DNA from: Candidatus Moraniibacteriota bacterium
GTDB taxonomy: Bacteria > Patescibacteriota > Minisyncoccia > Moranbacterales > UBA1568
Assembly (NCBI GenBank): GCA_052034935.1
Contig: JBPOIB010000005.1
Span: 16,357-80,356 of the forward strand
Direction: 5' to 3'
DNA: 64,000 nt
Part shown: positions 6,546 through 48,661 of the stretch, in pieces
Layout of the letters: every line of letters starts with the position of its first letter
How positions within the stretch are numbered: the first letter of the stretch is position 1
The notes under the pieces: model-generated
Database searches by the model: none
What the model saw: the letters and a program-made list of their open reading frames with translations, nothing else
Told to the model about the DNA's origin: nothing
Made by a program: the position numbers and the translations under genes

Positions 6546-6579
6546 GATACCTCGTATATAATTTTGAAAAAATACGCAT

Positions 6580-7143
6580 ATGTCATCCTCTCTCTCGCTC
6601 CCACTCGCCGTCGCTCTCATGATTATTACGGGAATTCTCGGGCTCGGAATCGGTCATTCTCTGACTCCTGAGTATCGGCTTTCGATGTATGAAAAGAACG
6701 GGATGGATCTCGGTCGTGCCGATCGAACACTCGACCTCCGGTATGTGAATGCAATGATTGCTCATCACCGGGGAGCGATGCTGGTCGCAGAACAGGCGAC
6801 AAAAAGTGAACGGACTGAAGTGAAGAATCTCGCTGAGGCGATACTGAAAGATGAGCCGAAGGCGATTGCTGAGCTGTACGCCTGGAAAAAAGACTGGTAT
6901 CAAGATGAACGAAAAGTCGCGGATCCGATTGCCCCGAAACTGGGAAGCTACGATAAGACGTTCGACCTCAGATTCCTCAACGCCGTTATCGCTCACCATG
7001 AAAATGGTGTCGCGATGACTCAGGATGTCCGCCTGAAGTCGAATCGCTCCGAAGTCCTCGATAATGCCGACGCGGTTGAGGCTTTCCTCAAGGGTGGGAT
7101 TACGATGCTCAAGGAGTGGCGCAGCGCTTGGTATAGCCTGTAA
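6580..7143 (+). CDS. DUF305-family protein (tandem duplicated domain)
   Basis: Two repeats carrying NAMIAHHRGAMLVA and NAVIAHHENGVAMT, with an N-terminal TM. Confidence 0.7.
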   Translation: MSSSLSLPLAVALMIITGILGLGIGHSLTPEYRLSMYEKNGMDLGRADRTLDLRYVNAMIAHHRGAMLVAEQATKSERTEVKNLAEAILKDEPKAIAELYAWKKDWYQDERKVADPIAPKLGSYDKTFDLRFLNAVIAHHENGVAMTQDVRLKSNRSEVLDNADAVEAFLKGGITMLKEWRSAWYSL

Positions 7144-34605: not shown

Positions 34606-37600
34606 TTAGGCCTGAGTGCTGGCAGTTGCCGGTTTGGCCAAAACTCGGTCATTATCATCGAACCACATCTCGTAGATGACGGGGATGAAGAAGAGCTTGG
34701 CGATACCGGAGAAGGAGAGTCCGGCGATGATAGCGCCCCCGAGGCCCTGCCAGATCGGGTCAGCGAGCGTGATCGGGATGAGACCGATGATGGTCGTGAG
34801 CGCGGTGAGGAGAATCGGCTCGAGCCGACTCGTTGCACCCTCGACGACCGCTTCGCGGACGGGGAGTCCGAGGTTGAGATTCTTGTTGATCTTGTCCACC
34901 ATGATGATGGAATTGTTCACCACGATGCCGAAGAGTGCGAGTACGCCAATCAAGGCTGGGAAGGAGAGCGGGATACCGAAGAGAGCAAAGATGATGAAGA
35001 CGCCCGAGACCGCAATCGGAATGACGAGGAGTACGATGAGCGCTTTACGGAACGAATTGAACTGGATTACCATCGTCCCGAAGATGAGGATGGCCGAGAG
35101 CACCATTGCATAGAGGATAGATTGAACAGACTTATTGTTCTCTTCGTTTACGCCACCGGTCTTCCAAGTGTAGCCAGCGGAAAGGCCGAGTTCAGTATCG
35201 GCGAACTTCTCGAGCGCAGCATTCAGCTCGGTTACGGCGTAGCCTTCGTCGACGCCGGCTGAGACGGAGATGCTCCGCTTCTCGTCCTCGCGGGTGATGA
35301 GAGTAGGATTCTTTTCGAGGGTGATGGTACCGAGCGAGAGGAGGGGGACCTGCTTGCCATCTTTTGTTTCAAGCAAGAGGCGCCCGAGGTCTTCGGGTGT
35401 GCCGAACTCTTCGTCGGTGAGACGGATGATGATATCGCGCTTATCTTCGCCGAATCGCACATCTTCTTTGACCGTGTAGCCGCTCCCGAGGGTGCGGAGG
35501 AAGAGAGCAGTATCGGCCGGAGTGAGGCCAGCTGCCGCGATTGCAGCATCATTCGGCGTGAAGGTGAGCTTCTTTCCGGCACTTGAAAGCGAAAGCGTGA
35601 CATTGCTCGTCCCGGCAGTCGCCTGCAGATAGGTCTTGGTCTTTTCGGCGTACGCCTGCAAGACGGAAAGGTCTTCGCCAAGAAGTTTCAATTGAAGATC
35701 GCTGCCGGCTGGCGGACCGCCGGAGAGTTGCGAGGCCGTGACAATGCCCCCGTTCCAATCAGCGAAGGCGCGCTCCAGTTCAGTGACGATTTCGCCAGAG
35801 CTCTTTTCGCGCTCCTTCGCCTTGATGAGGTGGACAGTGAAGAGGATGAGATTGTAGTCCTTGCCGGTCGCGCTTACTGCGCTGTCGGTCGGGGCGCCAG
35901 CACCGATTTCCGCGAGTACGAAATCGAGCTCAGGGAGATCTTGGAAACGTGGTAAGAGCTCGTTGACAGCTGCCACTGCCTTCGTCTCACTTATTCCAAT
36001 CGGCATCTCGGCGCTGACGTAGACGATTGTCGTGTCATCACTCGGAAAGAACTCGTTCACGACATAGCCGAGAGGAACGAGAGCATACGATCCGACCATG
36101 AAGATGATGAGAAAGACCATGGTAAGACGCCGGGCACGCTTCGAAGAGAGAATGCGCTCAATCAAAGCGCCGTACCACACCGAGAGTGAGTCAAAAGAGA
36201 GGAATCCGTGGTCTTGGAAATTCCCCCAGATTCTCCCAATCTTCGTTTCATGCCAAGCGGTCACGCTCTGGAGGAATGAGCGGATGAGACGGAAAGCGAG
36301 AAAGAGCATGATGAGGCCGAGAAGATAGAAGACCCATTTCAGCGGTCCGGCTGGCATGAGTTGGAAAAGGACAAGCGCGGCAATGATGAAGAGTGCGCCT
36401 CGCAGGAAGACAACAACACGTCGCGGAAACTTTCCCTCGAGGAAAATCGCCATGTAGGGGATGACGAGGAAAACAGCCGTGATAGCCGAGAGAGCGAGCG
36501 CCGAAGAGACGACAATCGGAATCGGCCGAATGAATTCGCCGATGATGCCAGTCGCGAGGAGGAGGGGAACGAAGGCCCAGACCGTCGTAATGGTCGTTGT
36601 CATGATGACGCCGCTGAAATCGCGGAAGACGAGGAGAGCTGTCTCGAGCGGTGTGAACTTACCGGAGCGGTGATAGCTCGCGAGGGCCGAAATGACGACG
36701 ATAGCATTGTCGACGATGATGCCGAGCGCGATGAGGAGCGAGAAGAGGGTAATGAAGTTAATCGAAATCCCTGCTGCGCCCATCACAAGAAAGGTGACGA
36801 GGAAAGTGAAGGGGATGGCAAAAGCGGTGATGAGAGATTGGCGCACTCCGAAGAAGAGGAGGAGAACGATAAAGACGAGTCCGAATGTGATGAGGAAGTC
36901 CCGCTGGAGCTGGCTGAAACTCTTATCAATTTCCTCTGCACCATCGAAGTAGAAGAGTGTTTCGAAGGCAATTGGGGAAGCGGCTCGGTAGTCGCTAATT
37001 GCTTTCTGGATGCTATCGATTGCTTCGCGCGTATCAGCGCTCTCAGTCTGGTAGACAGAAAAGAAAATCGCCCGGCTACCGGCGTGCGATGGGGTGGCAG
37101 CAAAAGCGGCGAGACTGCCGGGTTTCTCACGCTCATTGATATCAGCGATGCTTCCGAGCGCTACCGTCTGGCCTTGGAGGGAAAAAGGCAGATTGCGCAG
37201 ATCTTCGATTGAGCGAATGCCTTTTTCTTGGTCGAGCGAGAATGCAGTCGCTCCCGAAGCGATGCTGCCGCCAGGGAAACTCGATAAAGATCCTTCAATT
37301 GTCCGGCCGATGCTGGCGATATCGAGACCGTAGGCATTCAGTTTCTCTGGCGAGAGGAGAATGGAGACTTCGGGCTCGCGCCGATAGGAGAGACTCGCTT
37401 TTTCGACGGCCGGGAGCTCTTTGATTTTCTCAAGGAGACGGTCAGCAAGTTCTGGGAGTGCGCTCTCATGGCCGGGAGCCGAGACGGCAAAAAGAAGCAC
37501 CGGCTGGTTGGTGAAGTCAATTACTTCGACAGAGGGGTCCTGAGCTGCTTCGGGAAGCGTATTCACGCGATCGATGGCATTCTGGACATCGATTTTAGCT

Positions 37601-37962
37601 TTGTCCGGATCAACGGAAGAGGCGAATTCGATCACAATCGAAGAGAAGCTCTCCTGTGAGTTCGAGGTGACACGCGTGACGTCGGAGAGCCCGGTAACGG
37701 CATCTTCGAGCGGAATCGTGACAAGGTCCTCGATGTCTTCGGGCCCAGCCCCCGGAAAAGCGGTTGCGACGATAACGGTCGGAATCTGGATATCTGGGTT
37801 GAGTTCCTTCTTCAGCGAAAAATACATGGTGATGCCAGCGACGATGAGCGTCGCGGTGATGAGCAGGATCGTGCGAACGCTCGCGAAGTAGCGGCCGATG
37901 AGACCGTCTTTGAGCTTCGGGTCGAAGTGGAGCCGGTCAAAGAAGCCTTTGGTATAGGACAT
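34606..37962 (-). CDS. RND-superfamily efflux transporter permease (AcrB/HAE-like, 12 TM, two large loops)
   Basis: 1118 aa with N- and C-terminal halves of 6 TM each and the typical conserved Gly/Asp TM4/TM10 regions. Confidence 0.85.
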   Translation of the reverse strand: MSYTKGFFDRLHFDPKLKDGLIGRYFASVRTILLITATLIVAGITMYFSLKKELNPDIQIPTVIVATAFPGAGPEDIEDLVTIPLEDAVTGLSDVTRVTSNSQESFSSIVIEFASSVDPDKAKIDVQNAIDRVNTLPEAAQDPSVEVIDFTNQPVLLFAVSAPGHESALPELADRLLEKIKELPAVEKASLSYRREPEVSILLSPEKLNAYGLDIASIGRTIEGSLSSFPGGSIASGATAFSLDQEKGIRSIEDLRNLPFSLQGQTVALGSIADINEREKPGSLAAFAATPSHAGSRAIFFSVYQTESADTREAIDSIQKAISDYRAASPIAFETLFYFDGAEEIDKSFSQLQRDFLITFGLVFIVLLLFFGVRQSLITAFAIPFTFLVTFLVMGAAGISINFITLFSLLIALGIIVDNAIVVISALASYHRSGKFTPLETALLVFRDFSGVIMTTTITTVWAFVPLLLATGIIGEFIRPIPIVVSSALALSAITAVFLVIPYMAIFLEGKFPRRVVVFLRGALFIIAALVLFQLMPAGPLKWVFYLLGLIMLFLAFRLIRSFLQSVTAWHETKIGRIWGNFQDHGFLSFDSLSVWYGALIERILSSKRARRLTMVFLIIFMVGSYALVPLGYVVNEFFPSDDTTIVYVSAEMPIGISETKAVAAVNELLPRFQDLPELDFVLAEIGAGAPTDSAVSATGKDYNLILFTVHLIKAKEREKSSGEIVTELERAFADWNGGIVTASQLSGGPPAGSDLQLKLLGEDLSVLQAYAEKTKTYLQATAGTSNVTLSLSSAGKKLTFTPNDAAIAAAGLTPADTALFLRTLGSGYTVKEDVRFGEDKRDIIIRLTDEEFGTPEDLGRLLLETKDGKQVPLLSLGTITLEKNPTLITREDEKRSISVSAGVDEGYAVTELNAALEKFADTELGLSAGYTWKTGGVNEENNKSVQSILYAMVLSAILIFGTMVIQFNSFRKALIVLLVIPIAVSGVFIIFALFGIPLSFPALIGVLALFGIVVNNSIIMVDKINKNLNLGLPVREAVVEGATSRLEPILLTALTTIIGLIPITLADPIWQGLGGAIIAGLSFSGIAKLFFIPVIYEMWFDDNDRVLAKPATASTQA

Positions 37963-37968
37963 AGGGAT

Positions 37969-39132
37969 TTACTGGATCGGTTCAATAGTTTCACCCGAGA
38001 GAACGCTCGCGTTCAGGACAAGACGGGCATCTTTTTCCAAACCATCGGTAACGATTACCGAAGAGCCAATCGTGGCGCCGAGCGTCACGGCAATTTCTTT
38101 CGTGAGGTGATTTTCATCCATCAAGATGACCGAGGTCTTGTCGGCGGCTGACCGGATCGCATCGACTGGGATGAGGAGGCCGGTTTCAGTTTCTCCGACG
38201 AGCGGGAGACGAAGCGTGACAAAGCTGTTGTGTGCGAGAGTGTCGGCGGTCGCTGCCGGTAGAGCATAGGTCGCCATGACGAGACCAAGCGTGTTTTCAC
38301 TCCGGGCGAGATAACCTTGAGAAAGTACTGTCTCGCCGGTGGCCTGCTCGAGGATGGCGATGCCGGAATCGACGAGTGCATCGGCGGTCGCTTTCGGAAG
38401 CGCGGCCTCGAGGATGGCGGTTGGAGCTGTACCACGAATCGTCATGAGGACAGTGCCAGTGGAAACGAGATCGCCCGGACGAACGCCAATGTACTCAACT
38501 GTGCCACTGGCAAGGCTTTTCGGCCGGAGCGCGGCATCGCTTCGTTCAGCAATAGCGAGGTCAAGAGCGGCGTTCGAGCGCCCAAGTCGGAGGCGTTCGA
38601 GCTCGAGCTTGAGTGCCTTCAGTGCCGCCTTCTCCTCATCTTTGCTTTTCGAGCTGTCATCCTTGGCAATCTCCTTTTGCAGCTCAATAATGTCTTTCTC
38701 CAACTCGAATGTGCGCTCGGTGTAGCTAGTGCTGAGTCGAGCCTTTTCTTTTGTCAGGTCAGCAACCCCACTACCATAATCATTCGTCAGTGTTGCAAGT
38801 GTTTGTCCGACGCCGACCATCTGGCCGGTTTTGACGTGGATACTCTTTACGACACCAGGGGCAAGAGCGACGATGTCTGTGACACCTGATTTCTTCACCC
38901 GAGCAGAAACAGTTGTTTCGGTTTGATCCGTTCCCACGGTAAAAATATCGGCTGTTTTGATAGCTTTTTCTGGAAGCTCAGATTCTTTATCTGCTGTCCG
39001 CAAAGTATGCGCAAGCACGACCGTACTGAAGAGGATGACAAGCACGATAATGAAACTGACCGTTGGTCTTTTTTCCAGCCGAACGAAGAGTGCTTTGAAC
39101 ATAGAGTGAGAAAAAATGGATAGGAGGTTCAA
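37969..39132 (-). CDS. RND efflux periplasmic adaptor (membrane fusion protein)
   Basis: N-terminal TM, lipoyl-like VTDIVALAPGVVKSIHVKTGQMVGVGQTLATL, coiled-coil hairpin, beta-barrel. Confidence 0.75.
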   Translation of the reverse strand: MNLLSIFSHSMFKALFVRLEKRPTVSFIIVLVILFSTVVLAHTLRTADKESELPEKAIKTADIFTVGTDQTETTVSARVKKSGVTDIVALAPGVVKSIHVKTGQMVGVGQTLATLTNDYGSGVADLTKEKARLSTSYTERTFELEKDIIELQKEIAKDDSSKSKDEEKAALKALKLELERLRLGRSNAALDLAIAERSDAALRPKSLASGTVEYIGVRPGDLVSTGTVLMTIRGTAPTAILEAALPKATADALVDSGIAILEQATGETVLSQGYLARSENTLGLVMATYALPAATADTLAHNSFVTLRLPLVGETETGLLIPVDAIRSAADKTSVILMDENHLTKEIAVTLGATIGSSVIVTDGLEKDARLVLNASVLSGETIEPIQ

Positions 39133-43523: not shown

Positions 43524-43552
43524 AGCCACTAATCAGTGGTTGTTTTTCTATT
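43524..43552. terminator. bidirectional terminator
   Basis: ccact-aatc-agtgg within acagccactaatcagtggttgttttt. Confidence 0.6.
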
Positions 43553-43559
43553 GGGCAAC

Positions 43560-44186
43560 CTATTCATCTTTGCAAAAGGGGAAAGTTGATGATGCTTGAT
43601 ACATCCTTACCCTCTCGCAAGCATCGTAGCCGTAGCCGTCCCTGAGCCCGATGTTCGCTCCATGCTGTACCAGAAAGGATGCAGCCCGTTCATTTTTTTG
43701 AATAATGAAATCGGTGAGAATAGTAAGGTATCTTTTCTGATCGCCTTCCGCCCTGGCATTTGGATCGGCACCATAACTGATGAGTTTCTCAGCCAGGGAA
43801 AAATCATTGAGATTGAGGCTCTGCTCGAGCGGCGTCAACCCTTGTCCATTGGGAATATTCGGGTTTGCGCCCAGCACAAGGAGCGGCTCAACTAATGAGG
43901 TATTCCAATTGATGGCGTAGAGAAGCGGGCTGTTGCCGAATCGGTCGAGACTGTCGATATCTGCCCCGCTCGCCTTTAGAGAAGTGATTCTTTCAGCACT
44001 GCCTTCTTTGACGGCGCAGTGATACGGCATGATAGTGCAGTCGAGCTCGGCCTGTTTCCGGAGCTTGGCAAAGTTCCGATTTTCAGTCGCGTGATAGGAG
44101 TATCCGAAAGCGATGAAAAAAACTCCGGCGAGTATGGCGACTGTGGCCGCTATGACCAGCCCTCGGATGAGCAGATGCCTCCACAT
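43560..44186 (-). CDS. membrane-anchored ankyrin-repeat protein
   Basis: N-terminal TM; 3-4 ANK repeats (GADIDSLDRFGNSPLLYAI; GANPNIPNGQGLTPLEQSL; GADPNARAEGD...; GANIGLRDGYGYDA). Confidence 0.7.
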   Translation of the reverse strand: MWRHLLIRGLVIAATVAILAGVFFIAFGYSYHATENRNFAKLRKQAELDCTIMPYHCAVKEGSAERITSLKASGADIDSLDRFGNSPLLYAINWNTSLVEPLLVLGANPNIPNGQGLTPLEQSLNLNDFSLAEKLISYGADPNARAEGDQKRYLTILTDFIIQKNERAASFLVQHGANIGLRDGYGYDACERVRMYQASSTFPFCKDE

Positions 44187-44191
44187 AGAAT

Positions 44192-45382
44192 TTATTTGTA
44201 CCGCAGCGCATCGAGGGCATCGATGTGGCTCGCTTTGCGAGCGGGGAAGACACCGGTCATGAAGCCGACGAAAGCACCGAAGCCGATGACCGTCATGACG
44301 AACCAGAGCGGCGAGTAGAAGAGCGAAACAGCCTCGCCACCGAAGCGGGTTGCGACCGCATTAATGAGGACATTGATGATGAAACCGCCGACCCAGCCGA
44401 TACCGACTCCGCCGACGGCACCGAGGAAGCCCATGAGAGTGGATTCCATCACGAACATGAGCGAGATATCCGATTTGGAAGCACCGATCGCCTTCATGAT
44501 GCCGATTTCTTCGGTCCGTTCGAGCAAAGTGATAGTCATGGTGTTGAACATACCGATGGCGGAAACGATGAGGGCGATCATGCCGAAGACCATGAGGACG
44601 AGCTGGATGGCCCGGAAGACCTTGTTCGCCTGGTCGATGGTTTCGGAGATGGACGAAGCGGTGAGCCCGAGCGCAGCGACGGCCGTCCGGACCGGCTCGA
44701 CGACATCGGTTGAAACGCATTTCACCTTAAGCTTGGTGTATTGTTCGATCACAAAGGCAGTACCAATCGATTCGAGCGGAATATAGACGATGTTCTCGGC
44801 GCCATCGGCGATACCGACGATCGTGTAGGCCTCACCGAGGCCGACCGAGGTGCCGCGTCCGGCCGCGTCCGGATTCGTGAAAAGCGTCAGCGCCATCGAT
44901 CGGCCGAGCATTTCCTCCGGACTGACGCCGAAGACTTGGGAGACAGCCTTGGTGATGACGATTTCTCGGACATTTCCCTTGTCGAAAAGCCGGCCGTTCT
45001 CGATCTTCAGCCCCTCGCTTTTCAGGAAACTCTGGCCGGTCGAAACGGTGGAGACATCGAGTGTGATGTTGTCGTAGCGGCCCTGGCCCGCCAGTTCGAG
45101 CGCCGGGATGACATCGATGACATCGGGAATCTGGCCGAGCTTGTCTATCGTTTCCTGGTTGAGAAGCGCGTTCTTGTCTTCGCCGAGAGTGACATCGAGC
45201 GAGACGAGCGCGTCAGAGGTAGTGATCTTCTGGAGGAGGGTGCGCTGCAGTCCGTAGCCGAAGGAGACGAGGAACATGATCGCCGAGATGCCGACCGACA
45301 TGCCGAGAATAGTCAGCAGGGTCCGCATCGTGCGGGCCTTGAACATACGGAGCGACAGTTTGAGAACATCAAAAAAGCGCAT
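44192..45382 (-). CDS. FtsX/MacB-type ABC transporter permease
   Basis: N-terminal TM, large extracytoplasmic domain, C-terminal 3-TM FtsX fold. Confidence 0.8.
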   Translation of the reverse strand: MRFFDVLKLSLRMFKARTMRTLLTILGMSVGISAIMFLVSFGYGLQRTLLQKITTSDALVSLDVTLGEDKNALLNQETIDKLGQIPDVIDVIPALELAGQGRYDNITLDVSTVSTGQSFLKSEGLKIENGRLFDKGNVREIVITKAVSQVFGVSPEEMLGRSMALTLFTNPDAAGRGTSVGLGEAYTIVGIADGAENIVYIPLESIGTAFVIEQYTKLKVKCVSTDVVEPVRTAVAALGLTASSISETIDQANKVFRAIQLVLMVFGMIALIVSAIGMFNTMTITLLERTEEIGIMKAIGASKSDISLMFVMESTLMGFLGAVGGVGIGWVGGFIINVLINAVATRFGGEAVSLFYSPLWFVMTVIGFGAFVGFMTGVFPARKASHIDALDALRYK

Positions 45383-45384
45383 AC

Positions 45385-46731
45385 TTAGCTGTATTTGAGG
45401 AGCATGATGATTTCAATCTCGCGAGTCATCTTTTCAACTGTATCGCGGCGGAGTCCGACGCCCCCCTGGATGAACGACTTGTCGAGTTTGCGCGAGAGTT
45501 CGATCTGGCCGATCGCACTTTCGAGCCGGAGTTTCAAAGCGGCCTGGAGCCGGAGTCGGGCCTCGTCGTTTATCTTGAGCCGGAATTCACGCTCGAGATA
45601 GGCGCCGAGCTTGAGCGCACCCTCTTCGGTCGTTGTCCGAAGTGCCTGGGTGATAGCGAGGATATCCTCGACCCGTTTGGCGAATCTCATTGCGCGGAGC
45701 TTGTTCCAGCCAGCGCCGCCCTGGTCGAGTTCGAGGTCAAGTCGTTCGGTGAAGAGCGGCACGTCGATATTCTTGAAGAGGAGTTCTTTCAGGAAGGCTT
45801 CAGCCATCGAGACCTGCTCGTCGTTGAGTTCGGAGAGGAGGTGGGCGAGGAGTTGTTTCGCCTTAAACGGGATGAGGAGCATATCCACCTGCTGTGGCAG
45901 GAGGTTCTTGAAGGAATTCATGAGGATCTTCAGTTCGCTATTCTCTTCCTTTTCCTCCGTGAGGAAGTCCTCCATCTTCTTCTCCTTCAAGATCGGACGT
46001 TTCTCCTTGAAGACCTGCTCTTTGATGACGCGGCCGTCCTTCATGTGGATGACGCGGTCGGCATAGACGAGATGATCCGGGTTATGGGTCACCATGATGA
46101 TCGTCTTCTTGTCGATATCATTGAGCTCCTTCAGGATGTCGAGCACGTTCTGGGCCGATTCGGAGTCGAGGTTGCCAACCGGCTCGTCCGCGAGGATGAT
46201 GTCAGGATTGTTCATGAGAGAGCGAGCAATGGCGACACGCTGCTTCTGGCCGCCGGAAAGCTGGTTCGGCATCTTGTCGCCCTGTTCGGCGATGCCGAAA
46301 CGGCGCAGCAATGAAAAGCCGTCCTTTTTGCGAACCGCCGGCGTTTCGCCGCGGAACACGCGCGGGAGGCAGACATTGTCGAGAATATCGAGCGACGAGA
46401 TGAGGTAGAAAGCCTGGAAAACCATGCCGAGCGTGCTCTGGTGGAGGTCGAGTGTCTGGCGTTCATCCATCTTTGAGATCGACTGCCCTTTGATGTAGAC
46501 ATCGCCGTACGTGGCTGATTGGAGGCCGGAGATCGAGTAGAGGAGTGTGGACTTCCCGCAGCCGGAGGGACCGAAAATAATCACGTATTCATGGGGATAA
46601 ATCGTGAGATTTGTCTCTTCGAGCGCGCGCATCTCATTGGGTTTCCCCTGATTGTAGATGATGCGCAGTTTGTCGATGACGATGAGAGGTTCCGTGCCCG
46701 CTACTGGGACGGCCGGAGAAGTTTCAGGCAT
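45385..46731 (-). CDS. ABC transporter ATP-binding protein (MacB/FtsE-like) with a ~200-aa C-terminal helical extension
   Basis: GPSGCGKSTLL, LSGGQKQRVAIARSL, ILADEP. Residues ~235-448 are K/E/L-rich with no known motif. Confidence 0.8.
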   Translation of the reverse strand: MPETSPAVPVAGTEPLIVIDKLRIIYNQGKPNEMRALEETNLTIYPHEYVIIFGPSGCGKSTLLYSISGLQSATYGDVYIKGQSISKMDERQTLDLHQSTLGMVFQAFYLISSLDILDNVCLPRVFRGETPAVRKKDGFSLLRRFGIAEQGDKMPNQLSGGQKQRVAIARSLMNNPDIILADEPVGNLDSESAQNVLDILKELNDIDKKTIIMVTHNPDHLVYADRVIHMKDGRVIKEQVFKEKRPILKEKKMEDFLTEEKEENSELKILMNSFKNLLPQQVDMLLIPFKAKQLLAHLLSELNDEQVSMAEAFLKELLFKNIDVPLFTERLDLELDQGGAGWNKLRAMRFAKRVEDILAITQALRTTTEEGALKLGAYLEREFRLKINDEARLRLQAALKLRLESAIGQIELSRKLDKSFIQGGVGLRRDTVEKMTREIEIIMLLKYS

Positions 46732-46994
46732 GCGTATTTTTCTCTAGCATATCATATTTCAGGCTTGATTGGAGCGCTTTTCTGTACCTCGCGGTGCTCT
46801 TTCGGTATGATGGAGACATCATGATGAACATCTCAACGAAAACCATCATCGTGGTCGGCATTGTTCAGTCCATTGTCCTCACGCTTATGCTGATCCTCTT
46901 TTTCCAGTATCAGCGAATGCTCGAAGCAGAGAATGTACAGACTGAGACCGAGTTCCGGCCGGAAACAAGCCGATAATCTTCTTATACACGGTAT

Positions 46995-47762
46995 ATGGAA
47001 AACGTCATCCAGACTCTCGGTCCGATCCTCCGCCATGTTTATCGCCTGCACGATATGGCGAGCGATTTCCTTGCCAAGCACGTTTTTACAGTAAAGAAGG
47101 GAATCCTTGTCCTTGCCCACCTCTCGCTCTTCGGATTCTTTTTCCCTGAGTTACGTAAGGACTTCGGCGAACTGGCCGCTAATCTCCTCATCGCGCTCCT
47201 CTTTCTCAGTCCGCTATCAAAGATCTTCCGGATGCGACTCCTCCTCCAGGGGATGATGCTTCGCCGCGAGCTCGGCATCATAATGGGCTATCTGGCGACG
47301 GTCCATGGCGTCGGCTACCTCATCGATCCTGACTGGTTCGAATATATCGTGGTGCCAGTCCTAGCGGGGAATTTTTGGGGCGAAGACCCGCGTTACATCT
47401 TCGGACTTCTCGCTTATGCGCTGACTTTGCCGCTCCTCTTTACTTCGAATGCTCTTTCTCAGCGCCTGCTCGGTCCGAAGTGGAAACTTCTGCATCGAAC
47501 AGTCTACCTCATGTTCGTCTTCGCTATCCTCCATCGGTTCATCGTGAAGGAGATGACGCCGATCGCACTTGCCGAAGCGGGTATACTGATCGGTTCTTAC
47601 ATCGGGGCAAAAGCACTGGCCTGGAGGAACTTTCTGCCGCCCTTGGTCGAGGCAATCCGTCTCATAGCCGAAGACTATCGTCGCTCCAAGACGTTGGCGC
47701 CTGCCGAAGCATCTCCGGTTGAGAATTCTCCCCGCGGCCCGCAAGGACCGATTGTCTCCTAG
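46995..47762 (+). CDS. ferric-reductase-like transmembrane (YedZ/MsrQ-type) b-haem membrane protein
   Basis: 6 TM; His pair in WKLLHRTVYLMFVFAILH (H-x13-H) plus additional His in earlier helices. Confidence 0.55.
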   Translation: MENVIQTLGPILRHVYRLHDMASDFLAKHVFTVKKGILVLAHLSLFGFFFPELRKDFGELAANLLIALLFLSPLSKIFRMRLLLQGMMLRRELGIIMGYLATVHGVGYLIDPDWFEYIVVPVLAGNFWGEDPRYIFGLLAYALTLPLLFTSNALSQRLLGPKWKLLHRTVYLMFVFAILHRFIVKEMTPIALAEAGILIGSYIGAKALAWRNFLPPLVEAIRLIAEDYRRSKTLAPAEASPVENSPRGPQGPIVS

Positions 47763-47824: not shown

Positions 47825-48661
47825 ATGGATGAGATGAAGTCTCCAGTCGAAGCGGACATCCAGTCTGCTTCGGGAAGCTGTTGTTCAAACAAGGGCTCTT
47901 GCAATTGTGCAGGAACAAAGGAAGAGAAAGGTGCTTGGATCGTCGCCGGAGCCGTTCTCTTGGCCGGCCTCATGGTGACGGCAGGCATCCTGGTTTCGAT
48001 GAAGCCGGGCGTTTCTACGGGCACACCAGCGCCATCCGCCGCACCGACCGCAGCTAATCCGTCAGGCGAAAAGGCCGGTCCTCAGATGGCCAAGGTCTCG
48101 CTTGATGATGACGCGGTAATGGGGGATCGGAAGAAAGCGAAAGTCGCCATTATCGAATTCAGCGACTTCGAGTGCCCATTTTGCCAGAAGTTCCATAAGG
48201 ATACCTATGACACCCTGGTGAAGGACTATGTTGACACAGGCAAAGCGGTCATCTCCTTCCGGGACTATCCGCTCCCATTTCATGAGCCGAAAGCGAGTCT
48301 TGCGGCCAATCTCGCACAGTGCGTCAAGGAAGCGAAAGGGGATGTGGCCTACTTCAAGTTCTCCAAGCTGTATTTCGAGAATACCGTCTCGAACGGCAAG
48401 GGTGTAGCGGACGAGAAGATGAATGAGATTCTCCAGCAGGCTGGCGTGAATGCGACGAGCGTCAAAGACTGCGCGACCAAAGAGAAATTCAAGGATGAAA
48501 TCGCCAAGGACATGGCTGACGGCCAGGCGGTCGGAGTCAATGGCACCCCATCGTTTATCATCGGTAAGCTCTCTGCTGATGGTATGGTTGATGGCGAAGT
48601 TGTCGTTGGCGCCCTCCCGCTCGCTCAGTTTAAGTCGACGGTCGACAAATATCTCAAGTAA
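47825..48661 (+). CDS. DsbA-family thiol:disulfide oxidoreductase, membrane-anchored, with N-terminal Cys-rich segment
   Basis: CPFC active site in ...EFSDFECPFCQKFH; thioredoxin fold. N-terminal ...SGSCCSNKGSCNCAG followed by a TM. Confidence 0.75.
   Translation: MDEMKSPVEADIQSASGSCCSNKGSCNCAGTKEEKGAWIVAGAVLLAGLMVTAGILVSMKPGVSTGTPAPSAAPTAANPSGEKAGPQMAKVSLDDDAVMGDRKKAKVAIIEFSDFECPFCQKFHKDTYDTLVKDYVDTGKAVISFRDYPLPFHEPKASLAANLAQCVKEAKGDVAYFKFSKLYFENTVSNGKGVADEKMNEILQQAGVNATSVKDCATKEKFKDEIAKDMADGQAVGVNGTPSFIIGKLSADGMVDGEVVVGALPLAQFKSTVDKYLK

Follow-up and report, generated by a model that had tools for sequence, protein, structure and literature searches.

Does an ATP-binding cassette (ABC) transporter whose ATPase carries a long helical extension form a dedicated system with the membrane-anchored ankyrin-repeat protein encoded next to it? 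The question is raised by three genes in a stretch of 64,000 nucleotides from a Candidatus Moraniibacteriota bacterium (assembly GCA_052034935.1, contig JBPOIB010000005.1), here called the window; window coordinates are used throughout, and all three genes of the module lie on the minus strand. A reading made earlier, from the sequence alone, had proposed that ATPase, permease and ankyrin protein form an FtsEX-type mechanotransmission or regulatory system with novel inputs. The configuration flagged there, tail plus ankyrin protein, is real but joins two unrelated things. The best explanation overall, which we regard as probable, is that two of the three genes make up the conserved core of a type VII (MacB/LolCDE-like) ABC system specific to Patescibacteria, in which the ATPase bears a tethered repeat tail, and that the ankyrin gene is a recent add-on.

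The two-gene core and its class

The ATPase gene (45385..46731, 448 aa) is followed by the permease gene (44192..45382, 396 aa) and by the ankyrin gene (43560..44186, 208 aa). Order and coordinates given in the sequence-only reading match exactly the open reading frames (ORFs) found; the gaps, reported there as 3 and 6 nt, are of 2 nt between ATPase and permease (TAA-GT-ATG) and 5 nt between permease and ankyrin gene (TAA-ATTCT-ATG), when the junctions are read directly. All three ORFs are real genes under purifying selection: in pairwise comparisons within the window's clade, the ratio of nonsynonymous to synonymous substitution rates (dN/dS) spans 0.01–0.11 (NBD, the nucleotide-binding domain of the ATPase, 0.01–0.03; tail 0.04; permease 0.03–0.05; ankyrin gene about 0.1), these ratios being rough, since dS is saturated in such pairs. 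The G+C content at third codon positions (GC3) is 0.74–0.77 for ATPase and permease, against 0.57–0.65 for every neighbouring gene and 0.57 for the ankyrin gene; the elevated values of the two ABC genes might reflect codon bias through high expression. No second copy of either the permease or the tail is found elsewhere in the window.

The core is composed of an NBD, catalytically intact as judged from its motifs, and of a permease with four transmembrane (TM) helices and a MacB-type extracytoplasmic domain. The NBD (residues 1–240, 46012..46731) is assigned to the MacB/LolD/FtsE clade by Pfam, NCBIfam and motifs, and is modelled by AlphaFold2 (AF2) with a predicted local distance difference test score (pLDDT) above 90. 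Residues 37–185 match Pfam ABC_tran (E 2e-30), and the top NCBIfam matches are MacB (3e-57), LolD (3e-57) and FtsE (8e-50), with DarD, DevA and YbbA also found. Walker A, Q-loop, signature, Walker B and H-loop are all intact, and are invariant in a 30-sequence alignment. In the permease, TM1 is followed by the extracytoplasmic domain, of about 215 aa, and by TM2–4 (FtsX domain): residues 21–237 match MacB_PCD (PF12704, E 1e-18, 68.5 bits vs a cut-off of 27), residues 264–388 match FtsX (PF02687, E 3e-18, 66.6 bits vs 25.5). Its top NCBIfam matches are MacB, ADOP and lolCE, all scoring, as for the NBD, under the equivalog cut-offs. The features of a type VII ABC system are thus all found: an NBD of the MacB/LolD/FtsE clade with intact motifs, and an FtsX four-helix permease with an outer domain between TM1 and TM2.

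None of the well-known members of this class fits the module. For LolCDE, scores are 193.6 bits with LolD (cut-off 307.75) and 68.5 with lolCE (362.45). A MacAB-TolC pump, in which the NBD is fused to the N-terminus of the permease, is not compatible with NBD and permease being separate ORFs, with scores of 194 and 91 bits against a MacB equivalog cut-off of 966, nor with the lack of an adjoining membrane-fusion protein, the HlyD-like gene at 37969..39132 going with another pump (see below). FtsEX proper is rejected by 169.4 bits with FtsE (cut-off 264.85), by only 35–44 bits with the FtsX models (225–255), and by an outer domain of the MacB_PCD type. From the equivalog scores below cut-off and the low FtsX scores, the module is therefore classified as a type VII ABC of the MacB/LolCE kind, and the "FtsEX-type" label of the sequence-only reading was too loose.

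The possibility that the module is nevertheless the FtsEX cell-division system of the lineage, with the tail replacing the usual divisome contacts of FtsE, draws on its phylum-wide, single-copy occurrence at every locus examined and on the 169 bits of the NBD against the FtsE model. It is very improbable: FtsE and FtsX scores are both under the cut-offs, the outer domain is of the MacB_PCD and not of the FtsX type, the genes nearby include neither division genes nor a coiled-coil hydrolase activator, and other Patescibacteria are reported to have separately annotated ftsE and ftsX (PMC13059738).

A tethered tail of helical repeats

The helical C-terminal extension of about 200 aa, to which the sequence-only reading had drawn attention, is present, strongly conserved and predicted to be all-helical. 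The tail appears, from structural models, to be an independently folded cytoplasmic domain made of two four-helix repeats of about 76 aa. It is separated from the NBD by a charged, disordered linker (residues ~244–266, 45934..46002; pLDDT below 50), the length of which varies across alignments. The first repeat (residues ~287–360, 45652..45873; repeat hidden Markov model (HMM) E 7.5e-22) is a four-helix unit ending in a 'LDLELDQGGAGWNK' loop and a long helix; the second (residues ~376–447, 45391..45606; E 4.9e-19, pLDDT 92–98) ends in a 'LDKSFIQGGVGLRRDT' loop and the C-terminal helix 'REIEIIMLLKYS'. When modelled alone, the tail is all-helical, with a pLDDT of 76. The full-length model, obtained with a more diverse alignment, reaches a pLDDT of 89 and a predicted template modelling score (pTM) of 0.58: residues 10–240 (NBD) and 280–448 (tail) score 88–98, residues 244–266 below 50. 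High scores in both domains, the low-scoring linker and the pTM together indicate two confidently predicted domains, joined by a flexible tether of about 25 residues.

The internal duplication is also detected by profile self-comparison with hhalign, where tail residues ~68–124 align with ~153–209 (93% probability, E 3.6e-7). An HMM of the ~76-aa repeat finds two copies in 160 family members and 3–4 copies in three, while no further copy is found in the window. Within a unit, three helices lead to a Gly-rich loop, which sits at the N-terminus of the last, long helix. Among 30 sequences, 33–64% identical, the only invariant tail residues are glycines of these loops, G339 in repeat 1, G424 and G426 in repeat 2, all falling within the signature 'LD-P---GG-GL---(T)A'.

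No known domain accounts for the tail. Residues 235–448 have no Pfam or NCBIfam match at E<=1; the tail alone, compared with TOBE, NIL, OB_MalK, ABC_tran_CTD, DUF4162, Wzt_C and others, gives no Pfam or NCBIfam match better than E 0.07. It has no match among PDB sequences, a PDB profile search matches just the last NBD strand, and Foldseek, run on PDB and BFVD, returns nothing at E<=0.001. A literature search found no report of a type VII (MacB-type) NBD with such a tail. The ~76-aa four-helix repeat with its 'GG-G' loop is a new domain family, which could be added to domain databases.

The position and invariance of the loops also suggest a different role, in which a phosphate backbone or a nucleotide second messenger would be held by the helix, Gly-rich loop and helix of each repeat, in the manner of a helix-hairpin-helix (HhH) motif, and the transporter would thereby be tied to DNA, RNA or a cytoplasmic signal. 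Two features agree with a nucleic-acid or nucleotide binder: in both repeats, the last helix has the invariant 'GG-G(L)---(T)A' loop at its N-terminus, and the median isoelectric point (pI) of the tail is 8.1, vs 6.5 for the NBD. The pI, however, spans 5.6–9.3, so that the tail is not consistently basic; the loops resemble HhH by eye, but no Pfam HhH or other family matches at E<=1, no fold match lends support, and the spacing of the Gly motif seems to differ from that of canonical HhH. This role for the tail is considered improbable.

Longer family members always feature the NBD followed by 2–4 repeats, at times with further extensions. In P0135, a Pro/Ser/Thr/Val-rich low-complexity extension of about 330 aa (residues ~445–775) is found past the two repeats. 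In P0070, residues ~450–603 give a near-threshold YqeY/GatB-like match (26.3 bits vs a cut-off of 27); as it sits in an extra C-terminal segment, beyond the repeats, it is irrelevant to the tail encoded in the window. Apparent standalone tail proteins (P0001, P0007 and others) are genes broken by contig ends or frameshifts.

Distribution of the core

Relatives of the tail were found as 39 proteins in a word-indexed search, in 143 species-representative genomes, and as 299 clusters at 50% identity in an exhaustive HMM search; the metagenome scan was run with a 4-sequence tail alignment, a diverse 15-sequence alignment being too variable. Members carrying an organism name are all from Moraniibacteriota, "Patescibacteria group" or candidate division WWE3. 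The closest relatives are from metagenome-assembled genomes (MAGs) of Moraniibacteriota, such as one (L004) with 97% identity in the NBD and 93% in the tail. In all of 83 loci the tail follows the NBD in the same frame, and the permease comes next wherever the sequence reaches that far; the median length of the ATPase in the surveyed loci is 446 aa. The pair formed by a tailed NBD and a MacB-type permease is also present in WWE3 and in three other lineages. The tailed core is kept throughout the phylum and in further Patescibacteria, under strong purifying selection; the tail is an ancient, Patescibacteria-wide domain for which no family model exists. No conserved third gene is found 3' of the permease, where unrelated genes are present in other lineages.

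Two side observations were made on these loci. In one Patescibacteria lineage (L092) a PDDEXK_3 (PD-(D/E)XK) gene lies between tailed ATPase and permease (6569–6991 of that locus), with a second PDDEXK_3 copy about 3 kb upstream. Many MAGs are titled "uncultured Bdellovibrionales" (L005, L007, L008, L011 and about 40 more loci) and one "Undibacterium sp." (L003): their loci are collinear with, and 50–95% identical to, those of Moraniibacteriota, and these labels are probably wrong.

The ankyrin gene

As described in the sequence-only reading, the third gene encodes a membrane-anchored ankyrin-repeat protein: about four repeats are recognized by the Pfam families Ank (50.8 bits, cut-off 21.1), Ank_4 (47.5, cut-off 22.7) and Ank_2 (45.1, cut-off 27.3), with E values of 1e-11 to 1e-13, and a single strongly hydrophobic segment is found at residues ~5–29 (44100..44174; Kyte-Doolittle up to 2.6), near the N-terminus. 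The most conserved part of the protein is a juxtamembrane segment, 'TENRNF-LR-KAELDC--MPYHCA-KE' (residues 31–61), kept even in a 35%-identical relative; within it, Cys50, His56 and Cys57 (C-x5-H-C / C-x6-C) are invariant in an orthologue alignment that includes this relative, an arrangement which could form a metal site or a disulfide. Two further cysteines, Cys190 and Cys205, are shared by the five orthologues. One orthologue, P0191 (361 aa; L086 5001–6086, L087 1443–2528), features an extra C-terminal domain of about 150 aa, compared with the copy in the window. A Legionella-type Dot/Icm effector was considered and rejected: the best of the AnkH, AnkY, AnkG and AnkD matches reaches 43.7 bits vs a cut-off of 600, and the repeats alone match.

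The gene is an accessory, specific to a narrow clade. A database search returns five true orthologues, 63–100% identical, and the 35% relative, below which only generic ankyrin-repeat matches are found; the latter relative lies in an unrelated gene context, without the module. Of the 83 related loci, tblastn detects the gene in L003 alone; the 82 that lack it include relatives with 85–93% tail identity. At all six orthologous loci (L003, L084–L087, L089) it is located directly 3' of the permease, in the same orientation and 4–13 nt away. In loci with the gene, the permease is 94–98% identical to that of the window; those at 91% or below all lack it. This exact correspondence between ankyrin presence and permease relatedness fits a single recent gain, and the gene was evidently added once, recently, at the 3' end of the operon. 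Within the clade the protein is 63–70% identical, with a dN about five times that of the permease; from its dN/dS of about 0.1, it is therefore taken as a functional, fast-evolving gene.

These data bear directly on the proposal from which we started, that ATPase, permease and ankyrin protein are one dedicated three-part signalling or mechanotransmission system, in which the ankyrin protein would bind the outer domain, if located outside, or the tail, if inside. In 6 of 6 orthologous loci the gene comes right after the permease, in the same orientation; it is under purifying selection, and its conserved Cys50/His56/Cys57 segment would suit a membrane-proximal interface; furthermore, the slot 3' of the permease is filled by different genes in different lineages. 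Yet it is missing in nearly all the related loci, and is found only with a permease at least 94% identical; its GC3 is unlike that of the ABC genes, its 35% relative occurs without the module, and co-transcription alone is no proof of physical partnership. The degree of conservation of tail and permease is the same whether or not the ankyrin gene is present, so they did not evolve for it. Of all the alternatives, this one is the most weakened by the synteny data, and we hold it to be somewhat unlikely. The sequence-only reading had named two outcomes that would together count against it, a tail matching a common known domain and an ankyrin gene not syntenic in relatives: the tail is no common known domain, while the ankyrin gene, seen there as a co-operonic membrane partner, is not syntenic past the closest relatives, being confined to the clade with 94–98% identical permeases. 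A literature search found no ABC-ankyrin operon described in Patescibacteria. For the window this corrects the picture: the ankyrin gene came in recently as an accessory, and the system does not hinge on it.

Giant surface proteins in other lineages

The tailed ATPase of WWE3 and other Patescibacteria is directly preceded by a giant ORF in the same orientation. The encoded proteins range between 1,650 and over 2,400 aa, and most of the ORFs reach past the fetched flank. A Kelch beta-propeller or discoidin head comes first in these proteins, then a long series of domains of the fn3 and Pur_ac_phosph_N type; they are mutually homologous (26–85% identity over more than 1,000 aa), and all end in a common C-terminal motif, '...LTP...S(V/I)(L/F)E(M/L)I(I/F)xNFE(E/K)xFGW(T/L)xRL'. 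Hydrophobic segments are present at the N-terminal end of the only complete copy. Twelve loci include some sequence upstream of the ATPase, and 10 of these contain a motif-bearing giant ORF: L090 1–4999, L091 1538–4996, L094 11–6574, L095 1325–7201, L096 68–6805, L097 28–7251, L098 30–7238, L099 15–2453, L100 up to 151, and L102 184–3360. The distance from the ATPase start is 34 nt or less, or the two overlap, in nine of them (such an overlap with the called ATPase start is seen in L097 and L102), and 694 nt in the tenth. A metagenomic fragment of 273 aa (P0247) matches the giant C-terminal region over 99% of the query and has a precomputed MacB_PCD hit, a sign that the giant gene of one lineage may directly adjoin the permease gene, or be fused to it, with no ATPase between them.

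Giant fn3-bearing surface proteins of Patescibacteria have been discussed as candidate host-adhesion factors (PMC13059738); no ABC module linked to giant proteins was mentioned for Patescibacteria in the literature searched. The idea of mechanotransmission with a novel extracytoplasmic partner receives indirect support from other lineages, where the linked gene encodes a giant fn3 protein, not an ankyrin protein. Of all leads, the association with giant adhesin-like genes seen in sister lineages holds the most promise; it lies outside the window.

A more ambitious form of this idea is that tailed NBD and permease drive a Patescibacteria-specific apparatus, which anchors, deploys or actuates the giant Kelch/fn3 adhesins, docked through their C-terminal 'EMIIxNFEExFGW' helix, and so controls host attachment; the tail would be the cytoplasmic control or clustering input and, in the window's clade, the giant would have been lost from the locus and the ankyrin protein recruited as a client or modulator. 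In this specific form the idea is decidedly unlikely.

The giant genes also bear on a simpler alternative, an ordinary MacB/YknYZ-like efflux or antimicrobial-peptide resistance pump, in which the tail is a clamp for NBD dimerisation, with no regulatory input. The closest families include MacB, LolD, the darobactin exporter DarD and bacteriocin exporters, and dimerising C-terminal domains are known for the NBDs of MalK, MetN and ModC. Moreover, macB-like genes of Patescibacteria are routinely annotated as defence or efflux (PMC12455944). A 25-residue disordered tether, in contrast, is unlike the rigid attachment found in MalK or MetN, and a tail of 2–4 repeats, with extra domains at times following it, is what one would sooner expect of an interaction scaffold. 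No membrane-fusion protein adjoins the module, the nearest HlyD-like gene being about 5 kb off and paired with another pump, and in other lineages the operon is tightly linked to giant surface proteins. An efflux pump of this kind is regarded as unlikely.

Proposed mode of action

Mechanotransmission is an established model for MacB, LolCDE and FtsEX (summarized in PMC11466899). By analogy with these, we infer that in the tailed two-gene core binding and hydrolysis of ATP would move the extracytoplasmic domain of the permease, with no path for a cytoplasmic substrate; the moving outer domain would then act on an external partner or substrate, probably without pumping from the cytoplasm. The two tethered tails of each transporter would serve for docking or regulation in the cytoplasm, by binding a conserved protein partner or a phosphate-bearing ligand and thereby gating or localising the ATPase; such a binding site is suggested by the invariant Gly loops at helix N-termini. 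In other lineages, the giant fn3 surface protein encoded upstream would be the probable external partner, while in the window's clade the fast-evolving, membrane-anchored ankyrin protein may be an accessory, using or modulating the module.

A number of points weigh against this explanation. No homologue of the giant proteins is encoded in the window; among the 83 Moraniibacteriota-type loci, the end of a giant gene is found upstream of the ATPase only in L083, the most divergent one, and a limited homology search for the giant protein returned 22 fragments, none attributed to Moraniibacteriota. The docking or regulatory role of the tail, although considered the most likely one, is argued by analogy, and the AF2 model, being that of a monomer, cannot show dimerisation or docking. 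As for the ankyrin protein, its hydrophobic helix is flanked by two Lys/Arg residues on the N-terminal and four on the C-terminal side, with similar net charges. By this Lys/Arg count the prediction leans to cytoplasmic repeats, though conserved pairs of cysteines would be compatible with repeats on the outside as well. Finally, since the neighbouring genes are largely housekeeping and collinear, no functional clue comes from the context.

Patescibacteria (candidate phyla radiation, CPR) account for a large share of bacterial diversity and live by attachment to other cells; only a minority of their conserved proteins has been characterised. With giant proteins thought to mediate host contact, the linked module is a testable candidate for the handling or control of adhesins.

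Genomic neighbourhood

Divergent from the ABC operon, on the plus strand, are the genes for a Ferric_reduct-like membrane protein (46995..47762) and for a DsbA/Thioredoxin_4 protein (47825..48661), conserved in 62 and 50 of the surveyed loci, respectively. The pair could carry out a DsbB-independent disulfide oxidation; its conservation may simply reflect genome collinearity. A functional link with the module was considered and rejected, as the region is broadly collinear and of housekeeping type (infC, rplT, xseA, htrA-like, typA). On the other side, on the minus strand, an AcrB-type resistance-nodulation-division (RND) pump of 1118 aa (34606..37962; ACR_tran E 6e-160) is adjoined by the HlyD-like membrane-fusion protein (37969..39132), about 5 kb from the module. 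The RND pump and HlyD-like pair recurs in several related loci. The lineage is generally regarded as lacking an outer membrane.

Transcription signals are weak, and neither of the two scans, for promoters and for terminators, gave sites beyond chance. A promoter-like site is located upstream of the ATPase (46807..46836, minus strand; 9 of 12 hexamer positions): five such sites are found in the region vs 2.2 expected by chance, and this one alone is not significant. Just past the ankyrin stop codon there is a weak terminator-like hairpin (43526..43539, minus strand), with a 5-bp stem followed by a T-rich run; terminator-like sites in the region are no more numerous than in shuffled sequences, and the same scan found none on the minus strand between the three genes.

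Comparison with known systems

The module resembles LolCDE, YknYZ, YtrEF, YvrON, YclHI and MacB in the clade of its NBD, in the four-TM FtsX permease with MacB_PCD between TM1 and TM2, and in the adjacency of the genes. It differs from all of them in the tethered helical-repeat tail of about 210 aa, for which no family model exists, as well as in missing all equivalog cut-offs, in lacking an adjoining membrane-fusion protein and in its Patescibacteria host. FtsEX, with EnvC, PcsB, CwlO or RipC, is similar in concept, as a type VII ABC acting on an external partner encoded nearby, which in other Patescibacteria would be the giant protein; in the module, the outer domain is instead of the MacB type, and the candidate partners are giant Kelch/fn3 proteins or, in the window, the ankyrin protein, not coiled-coil hydrolase activators.

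With Legionella Ank effectors and AnkB-type membrane or periplasmic proteins, the third gene product shares ankyrin repeats, its best NCBIfam similarity being to AnkH, far under the cut-off. Unlike these, it is a protein of 208 aa, with an N-terminal membrane helix and a C-x6-C motif, encoded at the 3' end of an ABC operon and known from only five orthologues.

As for the tail, flexibly linked cytoplasmic modules that bind partners or substrates are also found in the FHA domains of Mycobacterium Rv1747 and in the C39-like domain of HlyB. These have unrelated folds, are N-terminal rather than C-terminal, and belong to type V and type IV ABC systems; a resemblance, and no homology, is claimed. 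The RD of MalK, the NIL/C2 domain of MetN and TOBE of ModC are, like the tail, extra cytoplasmic domains that follow the NBD, are present twice per transporter and are plausibly regulatory. Those domains are beta-rich, rigidly attached and part of importers; the tail described here has no match in sequence or fold, and is an all-helical domain on a disordered tether, in a type VII system.

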